Source: an uncultured Lentisphaeria bacterium (GTDB taxonomy: Bacteria; Verrucomicrobiota; Lentisphaeria; Victivallales; Victivallaceae). From it: a stretch of 64,000 bases of DNA. This document shows positions 9,363 through 54,693 of this stretch, piece after piece. The notes under the pieces are model-generated. The model was not told where the DNA came from and searched no databases. It saw nothing but the letters and a program-made list of their open reading frames with translations. Each line of letters opens with the position of its first letter. The first letter of the stretch is position 1. The stretch spans positions 2,025-66,024 of the forward strand of contig CAIKZE010000219.1 in the NCBI GenBank assembly GCA_903831825.1, written 5' to 3'. Both the position numbers and the translations under genes were made by a program.

Positions 9363-9509
9363 TATAGTAAATTTGTCAACGCAGGCAGTGAAATAGAGCT
9401 AAAATAACGCAAAAAATGCGATTTTGAAAGTTGCAGTTCAATGGCATGAAAAATGGTATTCCGGCTTTCTTGCGGGTGGCTTGCCGACGGAGAATGCATC
9501 CTTAATTTT
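9363..9509 (+). repeat. 147-bp direct repeat, copy A
   Basis: Aligns with 10441-10588 with 5 substitutions and one 1-nt indel (hand alignment). Begins tatagtaaatttgtcaacgcaggcagtg. Confidence 0.9.
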
Positions 9510-10367
9510 TCAGAAGATAAAAAAACGGCAAAGAAAAGTCACACAGTGTGTGGCGAATTGCCGTTGTCTGTCTCCGGGAAAGTAAATCGTCACATGCTGT
9601 GTGACGAATCCACGCCGTCGTTTCATCAGGATTTAGGCTGGTCTCATTACCGCACTCTGATGCGGGTCGAAAAGCCGGAAGCCAGGACTTTCTACGAACA
9701 GGAGACCGCACAGGCACATTGGAGCGTTCGCGAATTGGAACGGCAGATAGGCTCACTCTACTATGAGAGATTGCTCATGAGCAAAGAGAAGAAGGAAATG
9801 CTTTGCGAGAATCGCCATACCGTCGGACTTCATCCGCTGGATGTCATCAAGGACCCGTATGTGCTGGAATTCCTGAATCTCCCGGAAGACCATCGCTTGA
9901 ATGAAACGGATCTGGAAGACCGGCTTATTGAAAACCTGCAATCCTTCCTCCTGGAACTGGGCCACGGGTTCGCATTCATCGGACGCCAACAGCGTCTTAC
10001 GCTGGACGGAGACCATTTCTATGCTGATCTTGTATTCTATCATGTCCGGCTGAAATGCTATATCGTCATTGATCTTAAAACGCAGAAGCTGGCTCATGCC
10101 GACCTTGGCCAGATGCAGCTCTATGTCGGTTTCTACGACGAGAATGTTAAGGGAAAGGATGATAACCCCACGCTGGGGCTGATACTCTGCACTGACAAGA
10201 ACGATGCGGTAATCCGGTATGTGCTGGGGAAAGGGCAGGACAAGATATTCGCCAGCCGCTACCGGCTTGAACTGCCGTCAGAGGCAGAACTGGCCGCTGA
10301 AATGCGCCGCGAAATGAAGTTGCTTGGCATGGATGATGCAAAACAAGCGGGGGCTAAAAAGAAATGA
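9453..10367 (+). CDS. DUF1016/YhcG-like PD-(D/E)XK nuclease, 5'-truncated
   Basis: Homology to YhcG-type proteins starts only at LGWSHYRTLM. The C-terminal nuclease core is intact (GFAFIGRQQRL, YADLVFYH, IVIDLK, QMQLY). The first ~50 codons of the ORF are read from repeat DNA. An internal Met at 9594 would give 257 aa, against about 340 aa for typical full-length members as I recall them. Confidence 0.6.
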   Translation: MVFRLSCGWLADGECILNFSEDKKTAKKSHTVCGELPLSVSGKVNRHMLCDESTPSFHQDLGWSHYRTLMRVEKPEARTFYEQETAQAHWSVRELERQIGSLYYERLLMSKEKKEMLCENRHTVGLHPLDVIKDPYVLEFLNLPEDHRLNETDLEDRLIENLQSFLLELGHGFAFIGRQQRLTLDGDHFYADLVFYHVRLKCYIVIDLKTQKLAHADLGQMQLYVGFYDENVKGKDDNPTLGLILCTDKNDAVIRYVLGKGQDKIFASRYRLELPSEAELAAEMRREMKLLGMDDAKQAGAKKK

Positions 10368-10440
10368 AACTTCATTTTGAATCCAGCCTTGATTACCAGT
10401 CACTATTCACCAGTCACTATTTACCAATTGTCTCTACACA

Positions 10441-10588
10441 TATAGTAAATTTGTCAACGCAGGCAGTGAAATAGAGCTAAAATAACGCGAAAAATGCGGT
10501 TTTAAAAGTTGCAGTTCAATGGCATGAAAAATGGTATTCCCGGCTTTCTTGCGGATGGCTTGCCGGCGGAGAATGCATCCTTAATTTT
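10441..10588 (+). repeat. 147-bp direct repeat, copy B
   Basis: See copy A. Preceded by the 14-mer cagtcactattcac x2 and the junction aattgtctctacaca. Confidence 0.9.
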
Positions 10589-10812
10589 AACGCAAAGGCG
10601 CGAAGAAGAACAATAAAGAGAAAAAACCTTTTCAAAAAGGCATAAAAAAACGCATTTTATAATGAATATATGCACAACAAGTAATTTTTTTGCTGCTTGA
10701 CAGTCATAGACATGTTGACCTCATCGGGCTGTCCACTTTTTCCGGCCAGATATCTCCGGGTTTCTTTTTTTATGAAAAAAGTTTGAGATTTTTTGCTTTT
10801 TGCTTTGATTTA

Positions 10813-10831
10813 TGTAACTCTTGGGGTTACA
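10813..10831 (+). promoter_or_regulatory. Palindrome TGTAAC-N7-GTTACA in the higBA promoter region (candidate HigA operator)
   Basis: Perfect 6-bp inverted arms, 45 nt upstream of the higB ATG. Flanked by TTGATT (10805-10810) and TATAAT (10835-10840). Confidence 0.35.
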
Positions 10832-10875
10832 GTATATAATATAAATGAGATTTAGTTTTCAGTCAAGGGTTGGCA

Positions 10876-11154
10876 ATGATAAAAAGTTTTAAGCATAAGG
10901 GTTTAAAGCGGTATTGGGAACAGAATGACTGGCGCGGAATTCAGCATCAACATGCGCATAAGTTAAGATTAATTCTTGATTTGCTGAACGCAGCGACAAT
11001 TATTGATGATGTTGATTTTTCCGGTTCACGGTTGCATCCGCTGGAACCCAAAAAAGATAATATATGGTCGATAACAGTATCCGGAAATTGGCGGGTAGTG
11101 TTTAAATTTGAGAATAACAATGTTTATATTGTTGATTATAAAGACTATCATTAA
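10876..11154 (+). CDS. higB: HigB-type toxin (RelE/ParE superfamily, plasmid maintenance system killer)
   Basis: 92 aa from the ATG at 10876 (MIKSFKHKGLKRYWE...WRVVFKFENNNVYIVDYKDYH), a typical HigB sequence. The toxin precedes the antitoxin, as in higBA. Confidence 0.85.
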   Translation: MIKSFKHKGLKRYWEQNDWRGIQHQHAHKLRLILDLLNAATIIDDVDFSGSRLHPLEPKKDNIWSITVSGNWRVVFKFENNNVYIVDYKDYH

Positions 11155-11169
11155 GCATAATTTAACGGA

Positions 11170-11517
11170 ATGGAGAAAAACATGAATACGGAAAAAGAGA
11201 AGGTTTTAGACGCAACTATGCGCGCGGTCTGCCCGTCGCACCCCGGCGAAATATTAAAGGGATTGTATTTATCCGGTTCGTCAATCAGCATCAGCGAATT
11301 CGCCGAAACGATCGGTGTATCCCGCAAGGCAATTTCGGCGATAGTAAACTGTCACAAATCAGTAACTCCCGAAATGGCAATGCGTTTATCAAGAGCGACA
11401 AAGACAACTCCGCAGTTGTGGCTGAATCTTCAAGCCAACTATGATCTCTGGCATCTTGCGCATGAAAAGCAGGAAGTTTTTTCACAGATCAAACCGCTGG
11501 TTTTCGCAGTGGCATAA
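11170..11517 (+). CDS. higA: HigA-type antitoxin, XRE-family HTH
   Basis: 115-aa ORF with the HPGEILK motif and an HTH (ISEFAETIGVSRKAISAIVN). Starts 15 nt after higB. Confidence 0.85.
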   Translation: MEKNMNTEKEKVLDATMRAVCPSHPGEILKGLYLSGSSISISEFAETIGVSRKAISAIVNCHKSVTPEMAMRLSRATKTTPQLWLNLQANYDLWHLAHEKQEVFSQIKPLVFAVA

Positions 11518-13396: not shown

Positions 13397-13506
13397 TTAA
13401 TTGATTTAGCGATTTCCTGCCGGAAATGATTCCAGTCGTTTCATTTATGCGGTTGAAATTTCACGTTTCAGGAGGTTTATTATGAGGAAAAAAATTGGAG
13501 ATATAC

Positions 13507-14601
13507 ATGACGCCCGACGAACTGGCAATAATTGGTAAAGAAGCCCTGGCCCGGATAAAACATCTCGGAGTCTTTTTAAAAATAGAAGAAAAAGTTCAGC
13601 AGACCAGAGAGATTGAAGAAAAAATGCTTGCCCCCAACTTCTGGGACAAGCGCGAAGAAGCACAGCAGCTTATGGGGGCGCTCAGCATCTGCAAAAATGT
13701 GTGCAACCCTTACAACCGCCTGGCCAGACAGGTGGAGGATTTTGCGGTACAGTGCGAATTCGCCAAAGAAGACCCGGAAATGTGCGAGGAGGCTTCCGCC
13801 GCCTGGAAGAAACTTTCCGTGGAACTGGAACAGGTTGAACTCCTGAGCTTTCTGTCCGGCAAATTTGACGGCAACAATGCTTATTTTTCAATTCATGCCG
13901 GGGCCGGCGGAACTGAATCCTGCGACTGGGCCTCGATGCTCATGCGCATGTACCGGCGGTGGTTTGAACGCCGCGGCTGGAAAGACGAGATCATCGATAT
14001 TCAGCAGGGCGATGAAGCCGGCATCAAAAGCGTGACTTTGAGAGTTGAAGGCGAATTCGCTTACGGCTATTCCAGAGCGGAAAACGGCGTGCATCGGCTG
14101 GTGCGCATTTCGCCGTTTGACAGCAACGCCCGCCGTCATACCTCATTTGCTTCGGTTGACGTTTTTCCCGAAATCAGCGACGATGTCGATGTCGAAATTG
14201 ATGAAAAAGATTTGCGGGTGGACACTTACCGTTCCAGCGGCGCCGGCGGCCAGCACGTCAACACCACCGACAGCGCCATCCGCATTACGCATATCCCCAC
14301 CAATATTATAGTGGCGTGTCAGGCGGAGCGCTCACAGCATAAAAACCGCGCCACCGCCATGAAAATGCTGAAAGCGCGGCTGTATGAACGCCAGGAAGAG
14401 GAACGGCGCAAGGAAGCCGACCAGATTCGCGGGATAAAAACAGAAAACAGCTGGGGCAACCAGATCCGCTCGTATGTGCTGCATCCCTATCAGATGGTGA
14501 AAGATTTGCGAACCGATGTTGAAACCGGCAATACCGCGGCGGTGCTGGACGGCGATCTGGACCGTTTCGTCGAAGCCTGGCTGAAATCCACAACAAAATA
14601 A
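13507..14601 (+). CDS. prfB: Peptide chain release factor 2
   Basis: SPF tripeptide (RISPFDS) and GGQ (SGAGGQHVN). Collinear with E. coli RF2 as recalled from memory, including across the usual frameshift site. GGAG lies 7 nt before the ATG at 13507. The ATG at 13495 is an alternative start. Confidence 0.9.
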   Translation: MTPDELAIIGKEALARIKHLGVFLKIEEKVQQTREIEEKMLAPNFWDKREEAQQLMGALSICKNVCNPYNRLARQVEDFAVQCEFAKEDPEMCEEASAAWKKLSVELEQVELLSFLSGKFDGNNAYFSIHAGAGGTESCDWASMLMRMYRRWFERRGWKDEIIDIQQGDEAGIKSVTLRVEGEFAYGYSRAENGVHRLVRISPFDSNARRHTSFASVDVFPEISDDVDVEIDEKDLRVDTYRSSGAGGQHVNTTDSAIRITHIPTNIIVACQAERSQHKNRATAMKMLKARLYERQEEERRKEADQIRGIKTENSWGNQIRSYVLHPYQMVKDLRTDVETGNTAAVLDGDLDRFVEAWLKSTTK

Positions 14602-15599: not shown

Positions 15600-16662
15600 A
15601 AGACAAGGCAAAATCAATCAGGAACATTTTATCAAGACGGCCGACGGCAGGGATGTCACTCTTTTCACGCTGGACAATGGCGAAGGCGGCACGGCCTCGA
15701 TCCTTGACTACGGCGGTACCGTCGTTTCGCTGAAAGTACCGGACCGGCAAGGAAAAGCGCGGGACGTGGCGCTGGGATTTAAAAAACGTGAAGATTATTT
15801 GCAGAATGAGCCGCACTTCGGCGGAATAATCGGACGTTATGCCAACCGGATCGCGAAAGGCCGTTTTGTACTGGAAGGCAAAACGTATAATATTCCAAAG
15901 GATCCGAAAGAAGATAACGGGCTGCATGGCGGCAAAACAGGTTTTGACAGAGTCATCTGGAAAGCAACGGCGATGGAAAACTCCCTGGGGCCGGCGCTGC
16001 GGCTCCAATATGTCAGCCAGGACGGCGAAGAAGGCTTCCCCGGCCAACTGACGGTGTCTGTGCTTTATACTCTGACCTGGGATAATTTTCTGCGGATTGA
16101 CTATACTGCGGAAACCGACCGTCCGACTGTCATCAATCTGACTAACCACAGCTATTTTAATCTGAACGGCGAGAACGGCGGTTTGATTGAAAACCATGAG
16201 TTGTGGATCGGCGCCGGGTTTTATACGCCGTCTAGAGATTGCTTAATGACCGGCGAAGTATTGTCGGTAAAGCGCACCCCCGCGCTGGATTTTACCGCTC
16301 CGGCGCTGATCAGCTCGAAAATTAAAGACCTGCCGGATGGCTATGACTTCAACTATGTGCTGAATCGCCGCATCAATCCGGAAAGAGAAGCCGCGGCATG
16401 GCTGTATTCGGCGGAATCCGGCATCATGATGGAAGTTTTTACTTCGGAACCCGGAATTCAGGTTTACTCCTCGGAATTTCTGGACGACGAAGGTGTTACT
16501 GCCGGTAAAAGCGGCAAAAAATATTCGAAAAGAGCGGCGCTTTGCCTGGAAACACAGCATTTTCCCGATTCTCCGAACCAGCCGCATTTTCCGTCAACCG
16601 AGCTTAAGCCCGGAGAAAAATATCATAGTTTTACGGTTTACCGTTTTTCCGTGATTTCCTGA
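15594..16662 (+). CDS. galM: Aldose 1-epimerase (galactose mutarotase)
   Basis: GLHGGKTGFDRVIWKA and ALCLETQHFPDSPN motifs. The ATG at 15594 overlaps the rnhC stop. The longer ORF from 15481 lies inside rnhC. Confidence 0.85.
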
Positions 16663-17423
16663 GGTTCGTTGTTTTTCTTCCGGTAATGGCCCGGAGCCAG
16701 ACCGGTTTCCCGCTTAAAACTGCGGGAAAACGTGTGCTGGTCGGGAAAATTTAACATCTCCGAGATCTGGATTAAACTCAAGTCGGAATATGCCAGCAGG
16801 CTGATGGCTTTATTGATAACCAGGCGGCGGGCGAACTTCATCGGGGTTGTTCCAAGTTCATGCTGAAAAACCCGGATAAAATGGTTTATCGACATCCCCG
16901 CGGCGGCGGCCAGCCTGTCCAGCGAAATATCGCCTGACGCAAGGTTTTTCCGGATGTAAAATACGGCTTCGTTCATCCTCGGATCAAGCGACTGGCTGAA
17001 CTTGCGCCCGGAACCGTCCCGCTCCTGCCGGTAGCGGAAAATAAGGATGTGCAGATAGTGTTTCTTGATTTCGGTTTCCACATTGTCGTCCGGAATGTCT
17101 CCCGTGAAAATCGCGTTGAAGACGTCCTTGTAATCCGCGACCTGGATTATGCCGGGTTTCAGGCCGTTGTACAGCGGGCTGTCGTCTTCAGGCATGAATT
17201 TGGCGGCATTGATCCTGGACGGGGTGAACGACTCAATGCTGTGCATGCATCCCGGCGGAATCATAATCGCGCGGGAATCGTCGATATAATCAATTTTACC
17301 TTCAAGGCAAACTTTCAATTTGGTTTCAGTGTCAAAATAATGGTCCAACTGCCAGTATTCGTGACGATGATAGCCCGTGGTATGCGGTGAAATTCTTGCC
17401 GTATGCAATACTAAAATTTTCAT
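16638..17423 (-). CDS. AraC-family transcriptional regulator
   Basis: 261-aa ORF with an N-terminal cupin-like sensor and a C-terminal double HTH (MSINHFIRVFQHELGTTP...FPDQHTFSRSFKRETG). Its 3' end overlaps galM by 25 nt, convergently. Confidence 0.85.
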   Translation of the reverse strand: MKILVLHTARISPHTTGYHRHEYWQLDHYFDTETKLKVCLEGKIDYIDDSRAIMIPPGCMHSIESFTPSRINAAKFMPEDDSPLYNGLKPGIIQVADYKDVFNAIFTGDIPDDNVETEIKKHYLHILIFRYRQERDGSGRKFSQSLDPRMNEAVFYIRKNLASGDISLDRLAAAAGMSINHFIRVFQHELGTTPMKFARRLVINKAISLLAYSDLSLIQISEMLNFPDQHTFSRSFKRETGLAPGHYRKKNNEPQEITEKR

Positions 17424-17805: not shown

Positions 17806-17834
17806 TTTGAAATCTGAATAACGGAACATATAAT
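17806..17834 (+). promoter_or_regulatory. Sigma70-like promoter TTTGAA-N17-TATAAT for the type-IV-filament operon
   Basis: Spacer counted by hand as 17 nt. The -10 lies 25 nt upstream of the GGAGGGGG RBS/ATG at 17859. Confidence 0.5.
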
Positions 17835-17858: not shown

Positions 17859-20324
17859 ATGGCAGAGGGTAACTCCAGCAATCTTAACAGTGACGGCATT
17901 TCACCGGAACAACCAGCTTCCGAACAGCCCGATATCTCGCCGGCTCTGATCGCGACCCGCAACAGCATGTGGCTGTTCAAAAATAAATTCATCCGTTCCG
18001 CGTTCGTCATTGCGCTGGGACTGCTGATTTGTACCGCAATATATTCCCTCTATATTTTTACCCGACACGCCGATCCTGCTGAAATCTTTATTTTTTCAGC
18101 GGCCAAATACAGTCCGGACAAACCGTTTACGCTGCTGGTTCTCGCCAGGGACGCTAAAACTGAACTTCCGTTGCAGAACCAAGCCATAGATTTATATATG
18201 GGATTGAACGGCAAGGGGCCACGCAAACTGCCGGCGGTGAAAACCGGCGCTGACGGAATCGCGCTGGTTCCGGTAAATCCGTGTCCCGTCGGGGAATATC
18301 AGATCAAAGCAGTCCTCCGGGAGTTATCGGCAGCCAGCAAGATCCAGGTCAATAGCGGACAGGCAATCGCCGTCCAGTCTGTAACCGTAAAACCATACTC
18401 TCCGGACAATTGTAAAATAACCATTGACACCGCCAGAGCATTCTATCTGCCGGGCGACATGGTTGCGGGGACGGTCTCTATCCGGGATATCCAGGACAAG
18501 CCTCTGGCGGCGACCAAAGTTTTGCTGAACGCGTCTGTCACGGTCTATGTCACGGTCTATGTCTCGGAGACACGGAGACGCGGACGATGGGAGGTTGTTC
18601 CAAGGGAGCGGCAATTGGCGTCAGTAAGCGGCATCACCGATGCCGCTGGAAAACTAAAATTTAATTTTATAATGCCGAAAGAACTGGAGGGCGTAGACTT
18701 CAGGCGGAAAGATACTGATTGCAAAATATCCGTAACAGCATTCTCCGAAGCTGGTCGGCAGCAGAACTTAAGCAAAACATTAACGGTCACTGCCAAACCA
18801 ATCCGCATAACCTATATGCCGGAGTTCGGTCAATTACTGCCCGGCATTCCAGGGAAGATGTACATTTTCGTCAGTGATCCTTACGGGACTCCGCTAGAAA
18901 CCACCATGAAAATCGGAAATCAGGTGTTTCATACCGGTAAAGACGGGCTGACTTTAATATCGCTGCCGCCAAAGGGGCAGACTGCAGTTGTCAACGTGAC
19001 TGATAGCGCCGGATATAAAAGCGATGATGCTATGAAGTGGGTTTATAATGCATCTCCGCAGGCATTCATCCTTAAGACCGAAAAGGCGGTCGTTCACAAT
19101 GAAGAGGAACTTCAACTGAACATTATCGCCAATCAACCAGGCGGCAGGATATTTATTTATCTGGTGAAAGATGAAACTCCGTTCGAATTTATTCCAGTTC
19201 CCATGGATGCCAGGCAAAAGCAATTAAAGTTAAAAATTTCCTCAGACATCGCCGGTATCTTACAAATCCACGCTTATCGCCTCCAGACGGATGGGAAAGC
19301 GACGCATGAGTTGCGTTTGATTCAAGTTATGCCGGAAAAACGAAGCGAAACCGCCAAGGCATATTTTCAAGTGCAGGATGGATTGCTGAAGCCGGATTAT
19401 CAGAATCAGGCTGCGGGAATTCTTATGCATGAACCGGTTAATCAGTTGACCGCCGGATATTTGCTGGCTAATCAACGGAATTTCAGTAATCTGCAAGCAC
19501 AAAGCTGTTCAAAATACGCGGACCGGGAAAAATTATTGATTCAACAAAAAATCAAGCTTGGCAATAAACTGTTTTTATATTTGTCTATGGCAACGTTGAT
19601 ATTATTGGCTGTTTTAAACATTCCGTTCCTGCTGGTACCGCTTAATATCAAAAACAATTCCTACCGGATGGCAGTCAACAAGGAGTTCTATGGCGAAATT
19701 CAGCGGCAATTCATGAAACTGCAATGGATGTTTTGCGCGATAACTGTCGGTTACATGTTTTTTATCGTCTTGCTTTGTCTGGACCAGCCGTCCAAACATT
19801 TCCGGGAAATAAAGTTTGAGTATGCTTTGCCGTTGTCCATATTCTTTATATTGCTGTTGTTGCTGCTGGCAAAATCCGTTAAAGCCCGAAACCGTGTTTT
19901 CAAATATTTCAGCCCGGACAGCGCAAACTGTCTCCAGAAAATAATATTGCTGATTCCATGGCTATACGGTATTTCCAGTTTCGTTTTTTTGACTCTTACC
20001 CTGACGGCGGTATTTTTTTCGAATACGCCGGGACTTTGTTTTATAACATCTATATTTTTCATTTTGTCTTTAATTCCGCTGTTCGGCCTCCGTGGAATCC
20101 AATGCTCTGTCTGTGCCCAGGAATATCTTGATCTGTATTGCAATCGGGAAGTCAGTAATATGGGATCAGGTATCGGTACTTACCCGCGTTCTTTTTCTTC
20201 GCTCTGGATCGTGGGCAGCGGGCTTTATATCGGACCGGTCATTATGACATATCTGATTGTTGTCGCAGTAATAATCTCGCTGTTTCTGCCATTGTGCAAA
20301 ATCATCGATAAACTGGGTAAATAA
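17859..20324 (+). CDS. Large membrane protein: N-terminal TM, ~500-aa beta-rich extracytoplasmic region (Ig/MG2-like by eye), ~7 C-terminal TM helices
   Basis: 821-aa ORF with a strong RBS. Hydrophobic segments are visible at about residues 45-65 and 575-815. Stops 13 nt before the gspF-like gene. Confidence 0.8.
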   Translation: MAEGNSSNLNSDGISPEQPASEQPDISPALIATRNSMWLFKNKFIRSAFVIALGLLICTAIYSLYIFTRHADPAEIFIFSAAKYSPDKPFTLLVLARDAKTELPLQNQAIDLYMGLNGKGPRKLPAVKTGADGIALVPVNPCPVGEYQIKAVLRELSAASKIQVNSGQAIAVQSVTVKPYSPDNCKITIDTARAFYLPGDMVAGTVSIRDIQDKPLAATKVLLNASVTVYVTVYVSETRRRGRWEVVPRERQLASVSGITDAAGKLKFNFIMPKELEGVDFRRKDTDCKISVTAFSEAGRQQNLSKTLTVTAKPIRITYMPEFGQLLPGIPGKMYIFVSDPYGTPLETTMKIGNQVFHTGKDGLTLISLPPKGQTAVVNVTDSAGYKSDDAMKWVYNASPQAFILKTEKAVVHNEEELQLNIIANQPGGRIFIYLVKDETPFEFIPVPMDARQKQLKLKISSDIAGILQIHAYRLQTDGKATHELRLIQVMPEKRSETAKAYFQVQDGLLKPDYQNQAAGILMHEPVNQLTAGYLLANQRNFSNLQAQSCSKYADREKLLIQQKIKLGNKLFLYLSMATLILLAVLNIPFLLVPLNIKNNSYRMAVNKEFYGEIQRQFMKLQWMFCAITVGYMFFIVLLCLDQPSKHFREIKFEYALPLSIFFILLLLLLAKSVKARNRVFKYFSPDSANCLQKIILLIPWLYGISSFVFLTLTLTAVFFSNTPGLCFITSIFFILSLIPLFGLRGIQCSVCAQEYLDLYCNREVSNMGSGIGTYPRSFSSLWIVGSGLYIGPVIMTYLIVVAVIISLFLPLCKIIDKLGK

Positions 20325-20337
20325 GGAGTCAAAGAAA

Positions 20338-21381
20338 GTGAAAATCAACAGCTATGAGCTTGCTGACTTTTTCAAGCAGTTGGCGCTGCTGACCAAGTCG
20401 GAACTGCCGCTGCCGAATACATTATCCCAGATGGCGCGGGATTTCCGGAGCGGGGCGCTCCGGCAGGTCATCGCGGAACTGGGCGACGCCACCGGCAAAG
20501 GCAAAACCCTGTCCGAAGCAATGCGGGACTATCCGGAATCTTTCACGCCGTTTTATATCCGGATGATCGCATTGGGCGAGCGCGAGGGCACGCTGCCGGA
20601 CATATTGTCGGAGTTGTCCAGAATTTCCCGTCTCCATTATATGCTGGCGACCATGATTAAGGATATCATACTGTATCCGGTTATTACCATCAGCGTCGCG
20701 CTGCTGATTTTAATGTTTCTCTGCTATGTCATCATCCCCGAATTCGGCAAGATTTTCGATGAACTGCTGGCGGGAGAACCGCTGCCGGCGTTGACGCGGC
20801 TGGTGTTCTGGATTGCCGGGATCATCAAGATTAACATTGCCGTTTTCATTGTGCTTTATATCGCCTACATTGTCACAATCTGCTGGATGTTCCTGAATAA
20901 AAACACCGCCAATAAAGTTTTGCTGGCGCTGGTCCGTAAGTTTCCCTTTTCCGAGGTTGTTTTTTATAATTTCGCGATGGCCCGGCTGTGTACGGTATGG
21001 GCGGTCATGGCCCAACGGAAAGTCCCGGTTGAAGAAGCGTTTCCGGTCATTGCCGGAGTCATGGATTTTCCGGAAGTGGCGAACGCGCTGGCCCGCGTGG
21101 CGGAAAAATGCGGCAAAGGCGAAAGTCCGCTGCAATGCCTGAAAGCTGAAAACAACATTTCCCGGCTGCTGATCATGACCCTTGAAAACTGCCCGGAAAA
21201 CAAGCTGCCGGACGAGCTGGACAAACTGGCGGAACTGTTTCGGGAGCGCGGTTATTACGGTTACCGCCGCATCGGCATGGCCTGGGAGGTAATGTCCATC
21301 GCGTCAATGGTGATGGTGATCGGGATCATCATTATCTTCATCTTCCTGCCGTTCCTGGCCAGAATTGTCCACGGATGGTAA
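20338..21381 (+). CDS. GspF/PilC-family platform protein, paralog 1
   Basis: 347-aa ORF with T2SSF-type segments (LSEAMRDYPESFTPFYIRMIALGEREGTL, IIPEFGKIFDEL) and 3 TM regions. GTG start with AAGGAG upstream. Confidence 0.8.
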   Translation: MKINSYELADFFKQLALLTKSELPLPNTLSQMARDFRSGALRQVIAELGDATGKGKTLSEAMRDYPESFTPFYIRMIALGEREGTLPDILSELSRISRLHYMLATMIKDIILYPVITISVALLILMFLCYVIIPEFGKIFDELLAGEPLPALTRLVFWIAGIIKINIAVFIVLYIAYIVTICWMFLNKNTANKVLLALVRKFPFSEVVFYNFAMARLCTVWAVMAQRKVPVEEAFPVIAGVMDFPEVANALARVAEKCGKGESPLQCLKAENNISRLLIMTLENCPENKLPDELDKLAELFRERGYYGYRRIGMAWEVMSIASMVMVIGIIIIFIFLPFLARIVHGW

Positions 21382-21410
21382 TTTATATTATAGGGAAGGA
21401 GCTTTAAATC

Positions 21411-22547
21411 ATGTATGTCATCACCCAGCAATACACCATCGGCCGGTATAACGAGTCGCCGGAAGGTTCGCTGTCCACCACCGGCGCGGCGCTGCTGGCC
21501 AGTACGCTCGCGTGGGCGGCAAATAATAAAATACCGTTTCAACAGGCCATTTTATCCCTGACCGACTCCGGCTGTCCGCAGCATGGCCTGGTCCTTTTTC
21601 TGCTGCCGAATTCCCGCAACTGGAACATGTGCCTGCAAGCAGTTTACGGCGATCTGGTCAATGGCCTGCCGCTCTATCAGGCGTTGCGCAAACGCCTGGG
21701 ATACTTTCTGCCGGAATATTACTTGCAGGCGGTGGAAAAGGCGGAGAAGGATGGACTCCTTCCGGAAATTCTGCCGCATTTTGCCAAACGAATGAATCTG
21801 GCGTCGGAAATCCGGTATTCCTATCGAACCACCTTGGCTCTTCCATTTCTGGAGTTTGTGCTCATCCTCATTGTCCTGAGTGGATTGACAATATTTATTC
21901 TGCCCAATTTCCAGAAAATATTTAATGAACTGCTGGGCGGAATGAAAGTTCCCTTCAACAGCGGCTTCACCGGGTCGGCTCTCCGTATCTATTCATTGTT
22001 CGGAAAAAATCTGTTTTATCTCCTGCTTTCGGGCTGGCTGTTCCTGATCCTGTTCAGGAATTTCAGGAGCGTTATGACGATGATCATGGAGGAAATCCTG
22101 ATGTTCATACCGTATTTCAGGCCGCAGTTAAAGAACATGGCAATGCTGGAACTGGCGGCTTCCATTTCATCGTATCTGGCCGCCGGGGAAGACATTTTTA
22201 ACGCCATGAAATTCAGCCGGAAAGCCTGTAATCACCTGTGGCTGCGCCGTAAACTCGGCCGCTGCATCCGGCAGATGGAAAACGGCACGGACTGGCTGGA
22301 CGCCTGGCGGCAGATGAAGCTGAACCAGCCGTTGAATGAATGGATCATCTGCAATGCCGCCTCCAGACAGAACATTGCCGCCGGGTTCGACACGATGACC
22401 GACTGGCTGTATCATACCGCAATCCGGAATGTGCGGAAAAATACTTTCTGGCTGTCGCTGCTGTGCGTTTTCATCAATGCGACAATCGTTTTTACCATCG
22501 CTTATGCGGTTTTCGCATCACTGGTCATGATTATTCAAAAACTATAA
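21411..22547 (+). CDS. GspF/PilC-family platform protein, paralog 2 (divergent)
   Basis: 378-aa ORF. ILPNFQKIFNELLGG parallels IIPEFGKIFDELLAG of paralog 1. It also has LPEYYLQAVEKAEKDGLL and a similar TM layout. Confidence 0.7.
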   Translation: MYVITQQYTIGRYNESPEGSLSTTGAALLASTLAWAANNKIPFQQAILSLTDSGCPQHGLVLFLLPNSRNWNMCLQAVYGDLVNGLPLYQALRKRLGYFLPEYYLQAVEKAEKDGLLPEILPHFAKRMNLASEIRYSYRTTLALPFLEFVLILIVLSGLTIFILPNFQKIFNELLGGMKVPFNSGFTGSALRIYSLFGKNLFYLLLSGWLFLILFRNFRSVMTMIMEEILMFIPYFRPQLKNMAMLELAASISSYLAAGEDIFNAMKFSRKACNHLWLRRKLGRCIRQMENGTDWLDAWRQMKLNQPLNEWIICNAASRQNIAAGFDTMTDWLYHTAIRNVRKNTFWLSLLCVFINATIVFTIAYAVFASLVMIIQKL

Positions 22548-23612
22548 ATGGGAATACCGGATATGGATATCAACAAACTTGAACCACCCAAAATTGTAGA
22601 CCGGATACTGAATGAAGCCGTTGCGTTGCATGCCAGTGACATTTACTGGCTGCCGGAAGGTGATCTATACAGCATCCGCTGCAAAATCAACGGGGAACAA
22701 AAAGTTTTATATAGCATTAGCTCCGAAGCCGGGGCGCAATGTACCTCCCGGATCAAGGTCATGGCGCAATTGCTGACCTACCGCAATCAAATTTCGCAGG
22801 ACGGCGTAATCAAGGACGATGCCGGATTCGGCAATGTTGAATTCCGGGTGGCGGTCATGCCCACGGTCAACGGCGAACGGATTACTGTCCGGATTCTGGA
22901 TAAAGCCATGACGCCGCAGTATCTCGACGAACTGCATTTCGCGCCGGAAGTGGTCAGCCAATTGCAGACTATGCTCAGTAAAAACAGCGGCATGATTGTG
23001 CTTACCGGCCCCACCGGCTGCGGCAAAACCACCACCATTTACGCGCTGGTGCGGGAACTGTTGAAAAACAATCAGGATCCGGCTTCAATCATTTCCATTG
23101 AAGACCCGGTGGAATGCCGCATTCCCGGCATCTCCCAGGTGTCGCTGTCCAAGGCCGGGGAAGAATGGAATTATCCGCTGGCGCTGCGCGCCGCCCTGCG
23201 GCAGGACGTTAAAACGCTGGTGATCGGCGAAATGCGCGACCGCGAAGTGGTCAAGGTCGCCCTGGACGCCGCACTGACCGGACACCGGGTCATTACCACT
23301 TTCCACGCCGGCGATATTCCGTCGGTATATGCCAGAATCCTGCATCAGGGCTTTGAGCCGTTCCTGGTGGCGTCCGCCATTACCGGCATTGTCAGCCAGC
23401 GGCTGCTGAAATCCAAGCTCGGTGAAACCAGAATCCCGCTGGCGGCGCTGCTGGTTCCCGATGACGCCTGGAAAGATTTTATTATTGCCAATCCGGCATT
23501 AAGCGAACTCAGAAAGAAAATCAAGGAATATCCCATGGCCCATTTGCAGAACGTCGCTGAAAAAATGGCGGCGGCCGGCATGATAGATGTAAAGGATGCA
23601 TATTTACTATGA
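22548..23612 (+). CDS. GspE/PilB/ComGA-type secretion ATPase (short form, no Zn-finger C-domain)
   Basis: Walker A GPTGCGKTT, Asp box ISIEDPVE, Walker B LVIGEMRD, His box TGHRVITTFHAG. 354 aa. Confidence 0.9.
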   Translation: MGIPDMDINKLEPPKIVDRILNEAVALHASDIYWLPEGDLYSIRCKINGEQKVLYSISSEAGAQCTSRIKVMAQLLTYRNQISQDGVIKDDAGFGNVEFRVAVMPTVNGERITVRILDKAMTPQYLDELHFAPEVVSQLQTMLSKNSGMIVLTGPTGCGKTTTIYALVRELLKNNQDPASIISIEDPVECRIPGISQVSLSKAGEEWNYPLALRAALRQDVKTLVIGEMRDREVVKVALDAALTGHRVITTFHAGDIPSVYARILHQGFEPFLVASAITGIVSQRLLKSKLGETRIPLAALLVPDDAWKDFIIANPALSELRKKIKEYPMAHLQNVAEKMAAAGMIDVKDAYLL

Positions 23613-23983
23613 AAACTAAAAAACAGCAGAATGTCCGGTTTTACCTCATGCCGGAAATGATTTTCGCGTTGGGGCTGCTCCTGATTCTGACCGCGTGTTT
23701 TCTCGCGACCACCAGGACGATACAGCAAATGGATAAATCTTTCACCAGTGAAAGTTGCGGACTGATGGTTGTTGACAACACCATTGAACGGCTTGGGCAC
23801 AAGAAACAATATAATATTGACGATGTAAAAAGAATTTTCCTGGACGAATATGATAAAGGCGGAATTAAAGACAGGACGAGAATGATTGCCGGCTTCACGC
23901 CGGTAATGGACGGCGCCATGCTTGCCATCATCCAAAATAACGGAAAACCGCTGATTGAGGTACATATAAAATGCCAACGCTGA
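23609..23983 (+). CDS. Small membrane-anchored pseudopilin-like protein (degenerate N-terminus)
   Basis: 124-aa ORF with an ATGA overlap with the ATPase stop. N-terminus VRFYLMPEMIFALGLLLIL, with Glu displaced and no Gly at -1. Confidence 0.55.
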   Translation: MKTKKQQNVRFYLMPEMIFALGLLLILTACFLATTRTIQQMDKSFTSESCGLMVVDNTIERLGHKKQYNIDDVKRIFLDEYDKGGIKDRTRMIAGFTPVMDGAMLAIIQNNGKPLIEVHIKCQR

Positions 23984-24453
23984 AATCAAAAACATATAGA
24001 AAAAGAACTTATACCCTGATAGAAATGATGGCGGTGATCGTGCTTGTCGGATTTTTGATGAATATGGCGCTGCTGTTCTATTATAAAAGCCGGAAAATCA
24101 ACAGCCAATACACCGAGAAGGCCGTTCAGATAAAGTCCGTCAGTATTGTTTCAAAGTATTTGCGCAGTTTTGTCCATAATAACGGCGAGACATTTATGGT
24201 CAACCCGGACAAGGTTGTTTTCAAAAATGGTTCCGTCATGGCAATGGCTGACAACCGGCTGGTGTTTACTGCAAACAATGTGAATAGAAGCCTTACGCTT
24301 CCGAAAGGCTTTGCGGCTACGTTTGCTTTGGAAAGAAATCCGGAAGAGCCGCCATGCATAATCATGAATATCGTTATGTTGAATTCCAAAGATCAACCGC
24401 AATTTAATAAATTCACCCGGATCGCCGCCAGTGCGGAAGGAGTAGCGCAATGA
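23971..24453 (+). CDS. Pseudopilin with prepilin-type N-terminal domain
   Basis: 160-aa ORF. KRT-YTLIEMMAVIVLVGFLM has the conserved Glu5 but Thr at position -1. Overlaps the upstream gene by 13 nt. Confidence 0.7.
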   Translation: MPTLKSKTYRKRTYTLIEMMAVIVLVGFLMNMALLFYYKSRKINSQYTEKAVQIKSVSIVSKYLRSFVHNNGETFMVNPDKVVFKNGSVMAMADNRLVFTANNVNRSLTLPKGFAATFALERNPEEPPCIIMNIVMLNSKDQPQFNKFTRIAASAEGVAQ

Positions 24454-24659
24454 AACCAAATACGAAAAACCAGGGCGGTTTCGCCACCATTTTTGTTTTA
24501 ATGCTGGCGGCGGCTTTGCTGATAATTTTTGCCGCAACCATGAAAAGCATGTATGCCGCTCATGACCAGAATAAAAAAGACAAGCGGCAAATCATCAAAA
24601 AAGCCGAACAACTCAATTCACAATACGCCAACCGGGAAAAGTTATCATCCCCAAAGTAG
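24450..24659 (+). CDS. Small pseudopilin-like protein lacking Glu5
   Basis: 69-aa ORF with an ATGA overlap. NQGG-FATIFVLMLAAALLII has Gly at -1 but no Glu at +5, as in GspK/PilX-type minor pilins. Confidence 0.5.
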   Translation: MKPNTKNQGGFATIFVLMLAAALLIIFAATMKSMYAAHDQNKKDKRQIIKKAEQLNSQYANREKLSSPK

Positions 24660-24795: not shown

Positions 24796-24824
24796 TTGAC
24801 AACGGCTCCGCTTAGATGTATAAT
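24796..24824 (+). promoter_or_regulatory. Consensus sigma70-type promoter TTGACA-N17-TATAAT
   Basis: Both hexamers match the consensus exactly and the hand-counted spacer is 17 nt. The -10 lies 39 nt upstream of the ROK regulator ATG. Confidence 0.6.
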
Positions 24825-24862: not shown

Positions 24863-26062
24863 ATGATTATCAGAAAAAAAGATTATCAGAAAAAACTGTT
24901 CCTGACGATGATAAGGCGGCATTCATCGCTGTCACGGTCGCAAATCAAGGACAAGGCGGGCATCCGGTTGGCTACTATCACCGAAATAACGGCTGAATTG
25001 CTGGATGCCGGGCTGGTGAAGGAAGGCAAGCGTCTTAAAGCGGATCGCGGCCGGCAACAGGTGCTTTTGGGGATAAATCCCTCCGGCGGATACAGCCTCG
25101 GGCTTGAAATCAATCCGTCCAGGCTGTGCGTGAGCCTGCTTGATCTCAAAGGCGGGGTGCTGCTGAGCAGGGAGAAAGCGCTTAAGAAGAAGAATAAGTT
25201 TTGTTTGAACGAACTGGTGGAATTCTCCAAATCAATAATCGGACAATCGGGAATCGACTCATCCAGAATCATTGGCATTGGCGTGGCGCTGCCCGGCATT
25301 GTGGACGCGAAAAACGGAATCTGGATTTCATCCACTTTGATGGACGATATCAAGAACGTGCCGTTGAAAGCGGAACTGGAAAACGCTTTTAAAGTTCCGG
25401 CGTATCTGGAGGAAAGAACGCATGCCCGGCTTCTGGGCGAAAAAAGTCTCAGCGGCAGAAAAGACAACAATATCCTTTTTGTGGATTTAAGCTCGGGAAT
25501 AGGCGCGGCGGTTTTAAATGAGGGCCGGCTGTACCGGGGAAGCGCCAACAGCGCCGTGGAACTGGGCCATATTCACATCATGGAAAACGGCCCCATCTGC
25601 AAATGCGGCAACCGCGGCTGTCTGGAGGCCGTCTCCTCCCTTGAAGCGATTGCGAAACGCGCGTCCTCCGCGTTGAAAGACGGCGTTAAATCGTCGATTC
25701 TCGACCAGGCCGGGGGAAATGCGGACGACGTAAATGCGGAACATGTCATCAGCGCCGCGGCGAACGGCGATAAACTGGCGCTTGGCATCATCGACGATGC
25801 CTGCAAATGTCTGGGAACCGCCGTTGCTCACGCTGTAAATATGTTCAATCCGGAGTTGGTCATTTTCGGTTATGAATCGCAGCATGTGATCCAGCCCTTG
25901 ATTGAACCGACCTGGAAGGTTATTAGAAAATATTCGCTGAATACGTCTTTCAACTCATTGAGAATTGAAACCTCCTGCGGAAAAGATTTTCTGGGCGCGG
26001 TCGGCGCCGGCATGATTTCCATCGAGCATTTTTTCCAAATGCCTCAAATACAGATTACTTAA
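24863..26062 (+). CDS. ROK-family transcriptional regulator (NagC/XylR-like)
   Basis: 399-aa ORF with an N-terminal wHTH (LSRSQIKDKAGIRLATITEITAELL). ROK motifs: ELGHIHI plus the Zn cluster CKCGNRGCLE. Confidence 0.85.
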   Translation: MIIRKKDYQKKLFLTMIRRHSSLSRSQIKDKAGIRLATITEITAELLDAGLVKEGKRLKADRGRQQVLLGINPSGGYSLGLEINPSRLCVSLLDLKGGVLLSREKALKKKNKFCLNELVEFSKSIIGQSGIDSSRIIGIGVALPGIVDAKNGIWISSTLMDDIKNVPLKAELENAFKVPAYLEERTHARLLGEKSLSGRKDNNILFVDLSSGIGAAVLNEGRLYRGSANSAVELGHIHIMENGPICKCGNRGCLEAVSSLEAIAKRASSALKDGVKSSILDQAGGNADDVNAEHVISAAANGDKLALGIIDDACKCLGTAVAHAVNMFNPELVIFGYESQHVIQPLIEPTWKVIRKYSLNTSFNSLRIETSCGKDFLGAVGAGMISIEHFFQMPQIQIT

Positions 26063-31369: not shown

Positions 31370-31393
31370 ATTTTTAAAAGGAGGATGGACAAC

Positions 31394-32122
31394 ATGAAAG
31401 GGAACTCAACAGTTTTTAATCGAAAACTAAACTTTCACGTTTCGTTTTCGGAGAAGAAAAAGGCAAATTTTACGCTCATCGAACTCCTCGTGGTGATCGC
31501 CATCATCGCGATTTTGGCCTCAATGCTGCTGCCGGCGCTGACCAGCGCCAGGGAAACGGCCAGACAGGCACAATGCATGGGCAACCTTCGTCAAATCGGC
31601 CAGGCCGTAGCCTCCTACTCGCTTGACTATCAGGATTTTTTTCCGTATGCCGTTAACGGCGGCGCGCCGCACACCTTATATTACAATCTGCAACCTTATA
31701 CCGGAATAGTTCCCGCTTACCCTGCAACAGCGGCTCAAGGCAAAATTTACTGGTGTCCGAAAGACACCTACAGGGTGATTTGGAAAGATTGTCAATACAG
31801 CTATACGCAGAACGGTTATATGAATTGCCTTGGCGCATGGGCAACCTATATGCACATGACCCGGATGACGCGGATCAAGAACCCGTCCACCATGGTCTTC
31901 ATGACGGACGGAATGCGGACATCTGCCGGAGTGGAAGGTGGACAATTCTGCTTCTACACCTCAACATACCCTTTTACCGCAGGCTCCAGTTCCACAGACC
32001 TGGCGATTGATTTCAGGCATCCGAATTTAAACGTTCCGTGTTTGTTCGCCGAAGGTCATGTGAACACTAAAAATATTAAGGATATGTACGGAAATACAAA
32101 TTGTGTTTACTACGCGCCATAG
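31394..32122 (+). CDS. Pilin-like protein with prepilin-type N-terminal domain and C-terminal (D/E)GHV box
   Basis: [28 protein letters not shown], with FAEGHV near the C-terminus. I prefer the ATG at 31394 because GGAGG directly abuts the ATG at 31385. Confidence 0.85.
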
Positions 32123-32222
32123 ACATTCGTTTTCCGGTGTGAAGTATCGCATATTGCAAATTCTGTAATTTTAGAGTTATTGATTTAAAGACTTGTACAC
32201 AAAATAAGAAGGATAAATTCGG

Positions 32223-35006: not shown

Positions 35007-35021
35007 CCAAGGAAAATAACG

Positions 35022-52655: not shown

Positions 52656-53423
52656 TTATCTGAATACCGGAATCGCGTCTCTAAGCCAGAAATCGTTGTA
52701 CTTAATATCCTGAACATGGCCGTCAGCCCGGAGCGAATTACATGTTTTTACACCAAATCCGTGTGTCAGAATGCCCAGCGAGCCGGCATTGCCATCGGCG
52801 GGAAGGTCATTGTTGACTAGAGTATCAGGTGTAACTATCCCGTCAGCCCAACTTCCCAAATACCATGTAAAAGCAAACGGATATCTCTCGAATGCCCCGT
52901 CGGCGGAACCTCCGTTGGCGGTTTGCTGTTTGCCGTCGGCAATGGTAAGGACGGCCGCCGGAGATTTTATTTTGCTTACCGGCATGGCCGGAAAGTTACT
53001 GGCATCAGGAACAGTTATGTTGAAATTGCCCATGCCGGTTATGTAAGGATTCACGGAATAGGTCAGTCCCCCGGCAGTGTTTCCGGCTGAAATGGGCTGG
53101 CGAGTGGCCAACGGGCAAATAAACGTGGAAACCGTTTTTCCTCTCAGGTCACGATTTATGTACGGCGCCAGAAAACCGTTCCAACTGTAAGTGGCGGCAA
53201 CGCCGTTAACAACTCCAGGCTGACGCGGCGGTAAATAATTCCTGTAATCATCCGCATACATCTGGAAGAAAAGACCAATTTGTTTCTGATTGCTTCTGCA
53301 ACTGTTGATCTTTGCCGAAATTCTTGCTTTGTTCAAAGACGGAAGCAGCATTGAGGCCAAAATCGCGATGATCGCGATCACCACGAGGAGTTCAATGAGT
53401 GTGAAATTTTTTCGCATATTCAT
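52656..53423 (-). CDS. Pilin-like protein with prepilin-type N-terminal domain and C-terminal (D/E)GHV box
   Basis: [30 protein letters not shown], with RADGHV near the C-terminus. Confidence 0.85.
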   Translation of the reverse strand: MNMRKNFTLIELLVVIAIIAILASMLLPSLNKARISAKINSCRSNQKQIGLFFQMYADDYRNYLPPRQPGVVNGVAATYSWNGFLAPYINRDLRGKTVSTFICPLATRQPISAGNTAGGLTYSVNPYITGMGNFNITVPDASNFPAMPVSKIKSPAAVLTIADGKQQTANGGSADGAFERYPFAFTWYLGSWADGIVTPDTLVNNDLPADGNAGSLGILTHGFGVKTCNSLRADGHVQDIKYNDFWLRDAIPVFR

Positions 53424-53625
53424 TTTTATATTCCTTCTTTTTTAATTACTACAACCGTTTCGCTATTTATAGTTTAATTCACTTTCTGAAAAAAAGCAAC
53501 AATAAATTAAATAATTTCATTAAAAAATATTGCTTTTTAGCAAAATAAGCGTTATTATTATATTCATAAAATGAATAAACTATTTAAATAGAACATCAGA
53601 TTAGGCTAAATGGAGAAAAAAAGTA

Positions 53626-54660: not shown

Positions 54661-54693
54661 CAGATATTAAGCTGACGATAAAAAGGAGCATCA

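Follow-up and report, generated by a model that had tools for sequence, protein, structure and literature searches.

Introduction

Machines of the type IV filament (T4F) superfamily are recognised by an ATPase of the GspE/PilB family, a platform protein of the GspF/PilC family, proteins with a prepilin signal and a major pilin. In the system for type II secretion (T2SS) and the type IVa pilus (T4aP), a single platform protein with two T2SSF repeats and three transmembrane (TM) segments works with an ATPase that contains four nucleotide-binding boxes, an N1 and an N2 domain and a tetracysteine zinc site; a major pilin, four or five minor pilin-like proteins, a secretin, GspC/L/M or PilMNOP, PilT and a prepilin peptidase are further components of these systems. 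The N1 region binds GspL in the T2SS and carries N-terminal regulatory domains in the T4aP. The Com system of monoderms (ComGA-ComGG) has one platform protein as well. Tad is the only textbook T4F system with two different platform-family proteins, TadB and TadC, which are roughly half-size and are served by one ATPase without an N1 domain or zinc finger. Here we analyse a seven-gene operon at positions 17859-24659 (plus strand) of a 64,000-nucleotide stretch of DNA, hereafter the window, from an uncultured Lentisphaeria bacterium (contig CAIKZE010000219.1), of which a preliminary description had been made from the sequence alone. The operon encodes a large membrane protein (gene 1), two full-length platform paralogs (F1 and F2), a short ATPase (E) and three small pilin-like proteins (s1, s2 and s3). 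In our reading, to which we assign a probability of roughly 0.6, it is the cytoplasmic-membrane engine of a distinct, uncharacterised T4F branch in Lentisphaeria and Kiritimatiellaeota, with gene 1 as an accessory.

In Lentisphaerae, Kiritimatiellae, Verrucomicrobia and Planctomycetes, prepilin-like proteins of the DUF1559/H-X9-DG type form large families. Planctopirus limnophila has 68 DUF1559 paralogs and an essential T2SS-like locus, Plim_0410-0401, annotated as E, a PilT-like protein, a further E, one F and six hypothetical proteins (PMC10632474). This locus resembles ours in belonging to a bacterium of the Planctomycetes-Verrucomicrobia-Chlamydiae (PVC) group, in combining an ATPase and a platform of the T2SS/T4P type with small lineage-specific proteins that follow them, and in the large DUF1559 family of its genome, but as annotated its architecture differs. 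The PVC phyla go unmentioned in the main text of the survey of T4F systems by Denise et al. (2019), in which 884 systems stayed 'generic' (PMC6668835). In the literature that we searched, neither a machinery for DUF1559/H-X9-DG proteins nor the cassette analysed here was described, and the cassette is a testable candidate for that missing machinery. Gene 1 points to a second group of described proteins, the bacterial alpha-2-macroglobulins (A2M), which occur with a thioester (ECAM/YfhM) or without one (MagD/YfaS) as inner-membrane-anchored periplasmic arrays of macroglobulin (MG) domains, coupled to pbpC or mag genes.

Organisation and conservation of the cassette

The first four genes are spaced by 13, 29 and 0 nt, and from the fourth gene on neighbours overlap by 4, 13 and 4 nt. 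Gene 1 (821 aa) occupies 17859-20324 and is followed on the same strand by F1 (20338-21381, 347 aa, GTG start) and F2 (21411-22547, 378 aa), both assigned to the GspF/PilC family by Pfam T2SSF, by the GspE/PilB-class ATPase gene E (22548-23612, 354 aa as the longest open reading frame (ORF), Pfam T2SSE), and by s1 (23609-23983, 124 aa), s2 (23971-24453, 160 aa) and s3 (24450-24659, 69 aa), of which s2 is of the prepilin type and the other two have a pilin-like N-terminus. A sigma-70-like promoter match, TTGAAA-16-TATAAT (11/12), occupies 17807-17834 on the plus strand and is 25 nt upstream of gene 1. A strong match (12/12) does not occur again until 24796-24824, where it precedes the gene for a ROK regulator downstream of the operon; both are matches to the consensus only, in a region where the total count of such matches is not above that of shuffled sequence. 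The two matches thus bracket the seven genes as one unit, and these genes constitute a real operon, with exactly the packing and spacings that the preliminary description had given.

The same description had called the operon an orphan, which it is not. The core F1-F2-E-s1-s2-s3 recurs, with order and gene sizes kept, in other Victivallaceae metagenome-assembled genomes (MAGs; loci L001-L005, L012 and L025), on more distant Lentisphaeria-type contigs (L014, L018, L019, L021 and, on a 2-Mb contig, L015) and in a Kiritimatiellaeota MAG (L016); in L022 the cassette is divergently transcribed. A metagenome scan with an F2 profile detected at least five loci. Flanking genes differ at each locus, so that it is the cassette which is conserved and not its neighbourhood. 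Identity to the window proteins decreases from E (59-96%, across phyla) through F1 (26-92%, 11 loci) and F2 (27-87%, always adjoining F1) to s3, s1 and s2, and finally to gene 1 (27-57%). The top 120 clusters of ATPase homologs all comprise proteins of 283-394 aa, mostly of about 350 aa, that are 52-99% identical, and the source names, where given, are Victivallaceae/Victivallales, Lentisphaeria/Lentisphaerae, Kiritimatiellaeota or Verrucomicrobia. Judged by these comparisons, the cassette appears to be widespread in bacteria of the Lentisphaerae/Kiritimatiellae type. Two solo short ATPases (L023 and L024, 58-68% identical) have no platform or pilin-like genes in the sequence examined (up to 10 kb); that of L023 has only about 260 nt between it and the end of its contig, and was checked on its downstream side only.

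The ATPase and the two platform proteins

ATPase E matches Pfam T2SSE with an E-value of 1.5e-67 and contains the Walker A box at residue 154, the Asp box at residue 185, the Walker B box at residue 224 and the His box at residue 244. Cysteines occur at positions 45, 65, 158 and 190 only and form no tetracysteine motif. PilB from the PDB is matched at 1e-54 over residues 14-297, and the alignment to Geobacter PilB covers residues 204-484 of the latter, stopping where its Cys motif begins. The protein thus consists of an N2 domain joined to the C-terminal ATPase domain, with neither the N1 domain nor the zinc finger. When scored against NCBIfam models, E reached 247 bits for GspE (TIGR02533; cut-off 630), 220 bits for PilB (cut-off 676), 200 bits for ComGA (cut-off 300), 45 bits for the TadA family (cut-off 373) and 137 bits, likewise below cut-off, for PilT. 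The GspE model was matched at positions 111-380 only, and the match to the ComGA model spans positions 2-266 of 267. Homologs of E are 349-350 aa long and the 349-aa form is recorded on 26 contigs, for which reason the true start is probably M6 (nt 22563), giving a protein of 349 aa. The longest ORF begins five codons further upstream than all homologs and the public gene calls do; with the shorter start, the spacing between F2 and E becomes 15 nt instead of 0.

F1 and F2 match Pfam T2SSF at 3.5e-32 and 2.2e-14, respectively, each with two repeats and three predicted TM segments; F2 has in addition an N-terminal region of its own, about 70 aa long. F1 is similar to PilC in the PDB (2.2e-18) and scores 135 bits against the GspF equivalog model, whose cut-off is 424, while the ComGB score of F2 almost equals its GspF score. 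Over 98 aa the two proteins are 30% identical (E 4e-11), and they have the segment P(E/N)F(G/Q)KIF(D/N)ELL in common, in agreement with the preliminary description, which had recognised two divergent platform paralogs next to a short ATPase with four boxes and no Cys4 domain. The F1 protein of the window matches its ortholog from the Kiritimatiellaeota locus L016 far better (E 8.5e-80) than it matches its own paralog F2, which indicates that the F1/F2 duplication predates the split between Lentisphaeria and Kiritimatiellaeota. A full-length platform pair that is obligatory, combined with a motor without N1, makes the cassette a natural system for the question of heteromeric platforms.

With its GspE/PilB-family ATPase, two GspF/PilC platform proteins and the prepilin signal of s2, the locus is a member of the T4F superfamily, although no major pilin was found in or near it. 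It does not belong to the T2SS, T4aP, Com or Tad systems as they are defined, as the equivalog cut-offs for GspE, PilB, ComGA, GspF, ComGB and TadA-type proteins were all missed by wide margins. What the cassette shares with the T2SS and T4aP is an ATPase with four boxes and an N2 domain, a platform type with two T2SSF repeats and three TM segments, and small prepilin-type proteins. It differs in having two full-length platform paralogs rather than one, so that the single GspF with GspG-K of the T2SS is not matched, in the absence of N1 (the N1E domain of GspE) and of the tetracysteine zinc site from the ATPase, and in having three minor pilin-like proteins rather than four or five. The cassette locus holds no major pilin, secretin, GspC/L/M, PilMNOP, PilT or peptidase. 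The Pfam scan of the window, which covered ORFs of at least 150 aa taken to be genes, together with a few shorter ones, returned no secretin (GspD or PilQ), A24 prepilin peptidase, GspC/L/M or PilMNOP family, and the annotated flanks at the other loci yielded no A24 peptidase, GspD/C/L/M or PilMNOPQ; a second ATPase (PilT) was found neither in the window nor in the flanks. At the cassette loci in general, of which most were examined together with 8-10 kb on either side as far as the contig reached, no secretin, GspC/L/M or PilMNOP was present among the genes that have Pfam calls or were scanned. A major-pilin-like gene was found in the cassette at none of 13 cassette-bearing loci, a result that does not cover flank genes without a Pfam call or left unscanned. 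The lack of a secretin, a peptidase and a major pilin close to the operon had been noticed from the sequence before.

The Tad system offers the best functional analogy for a heteromeric platform, given its two platform-family proteins and its ATPase without N1 and zinc finger. The cassette ATPase, however, is far closer to GspE/PilB than to TadA-type proteins, F1 and F2 are full-length with two T2SSF repeats each, s3 lacks the Flp-type motif, and no Flp pilin, RcpA, TadZ or TadV is encoded near the cassette.

One alternative to a distinct branch is that the operon is the inner-membrane part of a canonical T2SS or T4aP whose secretin, GspC/L/M or PilMNOP, major pilin and peptidase are located at other loci. 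The ATPase does score best against the GspE/PilB models and the PDB structures of PilB/GspE, and an outer-membrane conduit is to be expected in PVC bacteria, which are diderms. Multi-locus organisation and shared peptidases are, moreover, common among such systems (PMC6668835). We nevertheless consider this explanation unlikely: the GspE, PilB and GspF cut-offs are widely missed, two full-length platform paralogs are always present, canonical coupling of an ATPase without N1 to an alignment complex is improbable, and no gene for a secretin, GspC/L/M or PilMNOP was present among the genes with Pfam calls or scanned at the cassette loci surveyed above.

Gene 1 and its protein family

According to hydropathy and the AlphaFold2 (AF2) model, the 821-aa protein consists of a basic, cytoplasmic N-terminus, a first TM segment (TM1) at residues 49-67, an all-beta region at residues 74-491, a helical linker and six TM segments at residues 567-812. 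TM1 (18003-18059, plus strand) corresponds to a modelled helix at residues 43-69 and aligns with TM1 of the stand-alone proteins described below. The periplasmic beta-sandwich array of the MG type, about 420 aa long (approximately residues 73-495; 18075-19343, plus strand), was delineated by AF2, by a Foldseek match to the C3 beta-chain and by the Pfam matches of homologs, and the six-TM module (19557-20294, plus strand), which carries the motifs LGxGIGxYP and FLPLxKI(I/V)(D/E)KLG, by BLASTP, tblastn and alignments A6 and A8. The full-length model has a pLDDT of 56 and a pTM of 0.31, and was used for secondary structure and for the match to MG domains only. Foldseek aligned the beta region of this low-confidence model with the MG1-MG6 ring of complement C3/C5/TEP1 (E 5e-17, about 470-490 columns, global TM-score of about 0.2). 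The protein itself has no significant Pfam match because its MG2 domain is deleted. The closest homologs, 923-1063 aa long and 44-57% identical, are named 'MG2 domain-containing protein [Victivallaceae]' and match Pfam MG2, A2M_BRD and Big_1; further domains found in homologs are MG3 and bMG5.

An exhaustive HMMER scan recovered 23 representatives of the family among 1.84 billion, in length classes of 291-433, 717-974 and 1640-1706 aa. A search of a 5.8-billion-protein index with the 7-TM profile A6 gave three close matches, the word prefilter having probably been swamped by hydrophobic words. In L014 and L019, stand-alone 7-TM proteins of 291-302 aa are encoded directly upstream of F1; the 302-aa protein of L014 matches the C-terminus of gene 1 at 5e-19 (BLASTP) and shares both of its motifs. 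In P0135 (330 aa), the N-terminus and TM1 are as in the long forms but are joined straight to TM2, with no MG array between them. These short forms indicate that the MG array has been inserted into a 7-TM protein at its first periplasmic loop, and the membrane module, not the MG array, is the constant core of the family.

At the other end of the size range stands P0137 (1706 aa; L025:6713-11833), encoded directly upstream of F1-F2-E-s1-s2-s3. Its N-terminal TM helix is followed by MG2, A2M_BRD (residues 500-638), the six-TM module (690-970), A2M/MG7 (1020-1109), a thioester domain (TED) with the sequence GCFEQT (1216-1467) and A2M_recep (1607-1691); the TED and A2M_recep were found only in P0137 and in P0142, another long relative. 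By its domain order, P0137 is a complete thioester-type A2M in which six TM helices stand in for the bait region. One plus six TM helices place each half of the macroglobulin, by prediction, in the periplasm. The membrane module replaces the bait region, and it is this position, between MG6 and MG7, that the six-TM module occupies in all members of the family. Relative to P0137, gene 1 lacks residues 159-243 (MG2), 591-646 (part of the bait-region domain) and 971-1705, and ends after TM7. It thus has an MG-domain array but no thioester domain (CxEQ), no receptor-binding domain and no bait region, and, lacking MG2, part of the bait-region domain, MG7, the TED and the receptor-binding domain, it cannot be a thioester protease trap. 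Gene 1 is a reduced derivative of a membrane-embedded A2M. From the described bacterial A2M, with which it shares the inner-membrane-anchored periplasmic MG array and, in P0137, MG2, A2M_BRD, MG7, TED (CFEQ) and the receptor-binding domain, the family differs in its N-terminal TM anchor, in the six-TM module at the position of the bait region or linker, and in being coupled to a T4F cassette instead of pbpC or mag genes. No description of such a TM-embedded architecture was found in the literature searched. The claim that the 821-aa protein has no counterpart was therefore half right: textbook T4F systems offer none, whereas a small membrane-embedded A2M/7-TM family does.

Several other identities of gene 1 were considered and rejected. 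The 7-TM module as modelled from P0135 (pLDDT 72.7, pTM 0.65) had no fold match in the PDB by Foldseek (best E 0.41); it gave no Pfam or NCBIfam match and has no invariant Asp in A6 or A8, so that a hidden prepilin peptidase or a diverged GspF is not supported. The single invariant Glu of A6 (E200) is not invariant in the wider alignment A8. An assembly artefact or pseudogene is contradicted by the recovery of the exact 821-aa sequence from 8 contigs, which represent three or more sample assemblies, by its dN/dS of 0.24 (window versus L001) and by the C-terminal ...KLG(K) end that it has in common with stand-alone and other fused forms. The distant matches P0008-P0013 were traced to ordinary split A2M genes of other bacteria, with no linkage to T4F genes.

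Whether gene 1 belongs to the core can be judged from its distribution. Members of the family were seen only as the first gene upstream of this cassette, namely in the window and in L001-L005, L012, L013, L014, L019, L021 and L025; those of L010 and L011 are known by protein match alone. Next to the intact cassettes of L015, L016, L018 and L022 the gene is absent. Starting 42 nt ahead of the stop codon of the A2M gene and continuing to the end of s3, L018 and L025 are 88.7% identical in DNA sequence. L018 still encodes the last A2M-7TM residues (...KLTVIQANTGVE; L018:4559-4602 versus L025:11792-11835), upstream of which lies an unrelated phosphorylase gene on the minus strand. This 42-nt remnant, preceded by unrelated DNA, indicates a recent deletion or replacement of gene 1 that left the six core genes intact. 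The reverse situation is seen in L013:9905-14772, on a Victivallales chromosome (OY787460.1, 8.6 Mb), where an MG-7TM gene is followed by an ATPase without about 65 N-terminal residues and by s1-s3, both platform genes being missing; the cassette appears to have undergone an internal deletion. When loci are compared, gene 1 is also the least identical in protein sequence, its dN/dS is the highest or close to it, and the periplasmic part of its family varies from about 1400 aa (a whole A2M) to none. On the strength of its absence from four cassettes, its loss in L018 and its variable periplasmic part, we conclude that gene 1 is a fast-evolving, dispensable accessory rather than a core component. 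Its conservation beside such operons, a check proposed in the preliminary description, holds within one Victivallales sub-clade and not outside it.

The same observations bear on the proposal, made in that description, that the large membrane protein takes the place of the alignment complex, the secretin or both. Such a structural substitute would fit the place of gene 1 at the head of the operon in every context examined, its occurrence only next to the cassette and the purifying selection on it, and a long periplasmic MG array could indeed span the periplasm. However, a component of this kind is hard to reconcile with intact cassettes that do without it, with its deletion from L018, with a periplasmic part that may be missing altogether, with its position as the fastest-evolving component, and with a family of 23 representatives set against a top-120 list of short-ATPase clusters. 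We regard the proposal as quite improbable.

In L021, a gene for an IS1595-family transposase (L021:3867-4412) lies immediately upstream of the MG-7TM gene, which fits mobility and turnover of the first gene.

Small pilin-like proteins and DUF1559 candidates

Each of the proteins s1, s2 and s3 has one N-terminal TM segment. The best case for a prepilin is s2, which passes the NCBIfam prepilin N-terminal domain model TIGR02532 (18.2 bits, cut-off 16.3), matches Pfam N_methyl at 1.8e-3 (2.6e-5 for the L022 ortholog) and, as a profile, matches type IV pilins in the PDB at 9e-5 to 7e-4, the alignments placing [YF] opposite mature residue 1; its motif is [YF][TS]L[IL]E with a variable residue at -1 (alignment A2), and GspH and GspG N-terminal models are matched only weakly. 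The protein s1, which is present in all cassettes, has the N-terminus [YFM]-x-[MV]-x-E, with an invariant Glu at the +5-equivalent position and no Gly at -1 (alignment A3), a weak match to ComGE (1.6e-4, 21.7 bits, cut-off 49) and no sequence match in the PDB. In s3, the predicted cleavage site G|F is invariant, but there is no Glu at +5, no globular domain and no Flp-type motif (alignment A4), and the match to a PDB pilin is marginal (0.049). The reading of all three as small pilin-like proteins, already made from the sequence, stands for s2 on its model match and, for s1 and s3, appears justified by N-terminal architecture only.

These proteins, together with the motor, invite comparison with the Com system, and the operon might be viewed as a Com-like DNA-uptake pseudopilus. 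The ATPase, at about 350 aa, and the platform, at about 347 aa, are Com-sized, small pilin-like genes come next and no secretin is near; E covers almost the whole ComGA model, F2 scores about as well with ComGB as with GspF, and s1 resembles ComGE weakly. Nonetheless, none of the Com cut-offs is reached (ComGA 200/300, ComGB 59/240, ComGE 21.7/49), there are two platforms where Com has one, the hosts are diderm, and neither a ComGC-like pilin gene nor the DNA-translocation genes comEA, comEC and comFA were found in the window or the annotated flanks. A role in DNA uptake is accordingly given very little weight.

Candidate filament subunits are encoded elsewhere in the window. A motif scan identified two proteins of the DUF1559/H-X9-DG type, one at 31385-32122 on the plus strand, with an AEGHV box (Pfam N_methyl 6.8e-7, SBP_bac_10 1.4e-8), and one at 52656-53423 on the minus strand (N_methyl 6.9e-7, SBP_bac_10 2.6e-5), with near-identical N-termini; the (D/E)GHV-box proteins singled out in the preliminary description are thus real prepilin-like proteins of this type. 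The first gene lies just upstream of GH123-like and GHL6/GH42M glycoside hydrolase genes (31385-37061), the second adjoins CBM9/GH42M genes and a ROK regulator gene (52656-57066), and in L015 a DUF1559-type gene is likewise paired with a heparinase-like gene, which suggests that the DUF1559 pilin-like proteins belong to polysaccharide-utilisation loci. The residue at -1 of the predicted cleavage site is Asn in the DUF1559 proteins (window 31463-31486 and within 52656-53423), one of T, R, Y, N, S, F and P in s1 and s2, and an invariant Gly only in s3. A residue other than Gly may reflect an unusual peptidase specificity, or no cleavage.

All seven genes of the operon are under purifying selection, with Nei-Gojobori dN/dS values of 0.06-0.28 between the window and L001 (0.06 for E, 0.09 for s3, 0.12 for F1 and 0.15 for F2) and of 0.006-0.30 between L004 and L012. 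Although canonical partners are missing, gene 1 is shorter by several domains than its longer homologs and L013 has lost F1, F2 and the ATPase N-terminus, these values rule out for practical purposes that the operon is the non-functional relic of a decaying secretion or pilus system. The intact, tightly coupled ORFs, the 59-96% identity of the ATPase across phyla and the identical 821-aa protein on several contigs likewise speak against it.

A working model of the cassette

In our preferred reading, the operon is an engine made of a conserved core, with two ancient full-length GspF/PilC paralogs, one ATPase without N1 and zinc finger and three small pilin-like proteins. From the established T4F mechanism, the ATPase hexamer would be expected to turn or push a platform composed of both F1 and F2. 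Such a platform would be heteromeric, unlike the usual homo-oligomeric platform of PilC/GspF, and would be a functional analogue of TadB/TadC. The proteins s1-s3 may form a priming or tip complex, and the subunits of the filament or pseudopilus would be supplied in trans, the best candidates being DUF1559/H-X9-DG proteins on account of their prepilin-type N-termini and their position next to glycoside-hydrolase genes. A prepilin peptidase or outer-membrane conduit may be encoded elsewhere or be absent; since the N1 region used for GspL or PilM-type partners is missing from the motor, a canonical alignment complex is improbable. Where gene 1 is present, its conserved 7-TM module would most probably dock to or modulate the platform, the periplasmic MG array being a dispensable, lineage-specific decoration, and the macroglobulin part of the long forms could guard or sense the periplasm at the site of assembly. 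The reductive series from 1706 aa through about 300 aa to absence bears on how macroglobulins are re-purposed and on their coupling to a filament motor.

Several points weigh against this reading. The filament, its substrates and their processing are predicted, and the link to DUF1559 proteins is drawn from the prepilin-type N-termini that they share and from 13 cassettes that have no major pilin. The F1/F2 heteromer is suggested by strict co-occurrence. Asn at -1 in the DUF1559 proteins and the variable -1 residue of s1 and s2 do not fit the specificity of canonical prepilin peptidases, and the sequence similarity of s1 and s3 to known pilins is weak or absent. It is possible that secretin, peptidase and GspC/L/M-like genes are present elsewhere in the genomes. 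As regards the accessory status of gene 1, purifying selection and its occurrence only upstream of the cassette clearly speak for some cassette-linked function, and a 7-TM gene may be located at another locus where it does not adjoin the cassette.

A bolder version of the model can be formulated, in which the cassette is a new, secretin-independent T4F class of diderm PVC bacteria that extracts and polymerises, or displays, the greatly expanded DUF1559 proteins for glycan capture, and is mechanically coupled to an A2M whose six-TM module senses the activity of the platform or filament, not proteolysis, and thereby triggers the macroglobulin's conformational change or guards the periplasm where assembly takes place. 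We put this forward as a speculation that would more probably fail than hold, by a wide measure.

Other features of the window

Rfam and tRNA scans of the window returned no matches, and the release-factor gene at 13495-14601 has no CTTTGAC programmed-frameshift site. A low-GC patch at 9453-11517 (0.41 versus about 0.49) contains a gene for a YhcG/DUF1016 nuclease of the PDDEXK type and a HigB-like toxin/helix-turn-helix antitoxin pair, and is probably a small mobile or defence islet. Genes for AraC-family regulators adjoin the cassette in the window (16638-17423, minus strand) and in L022 (3742-4596), and genes for ROK/NagC-like regulators do so in the window (24863-26062, plus strand) and in L016 (3982-5106); the recurrence of these sugar-type regulators may be a coincidence or a hint of carbohydrate-responsive control.

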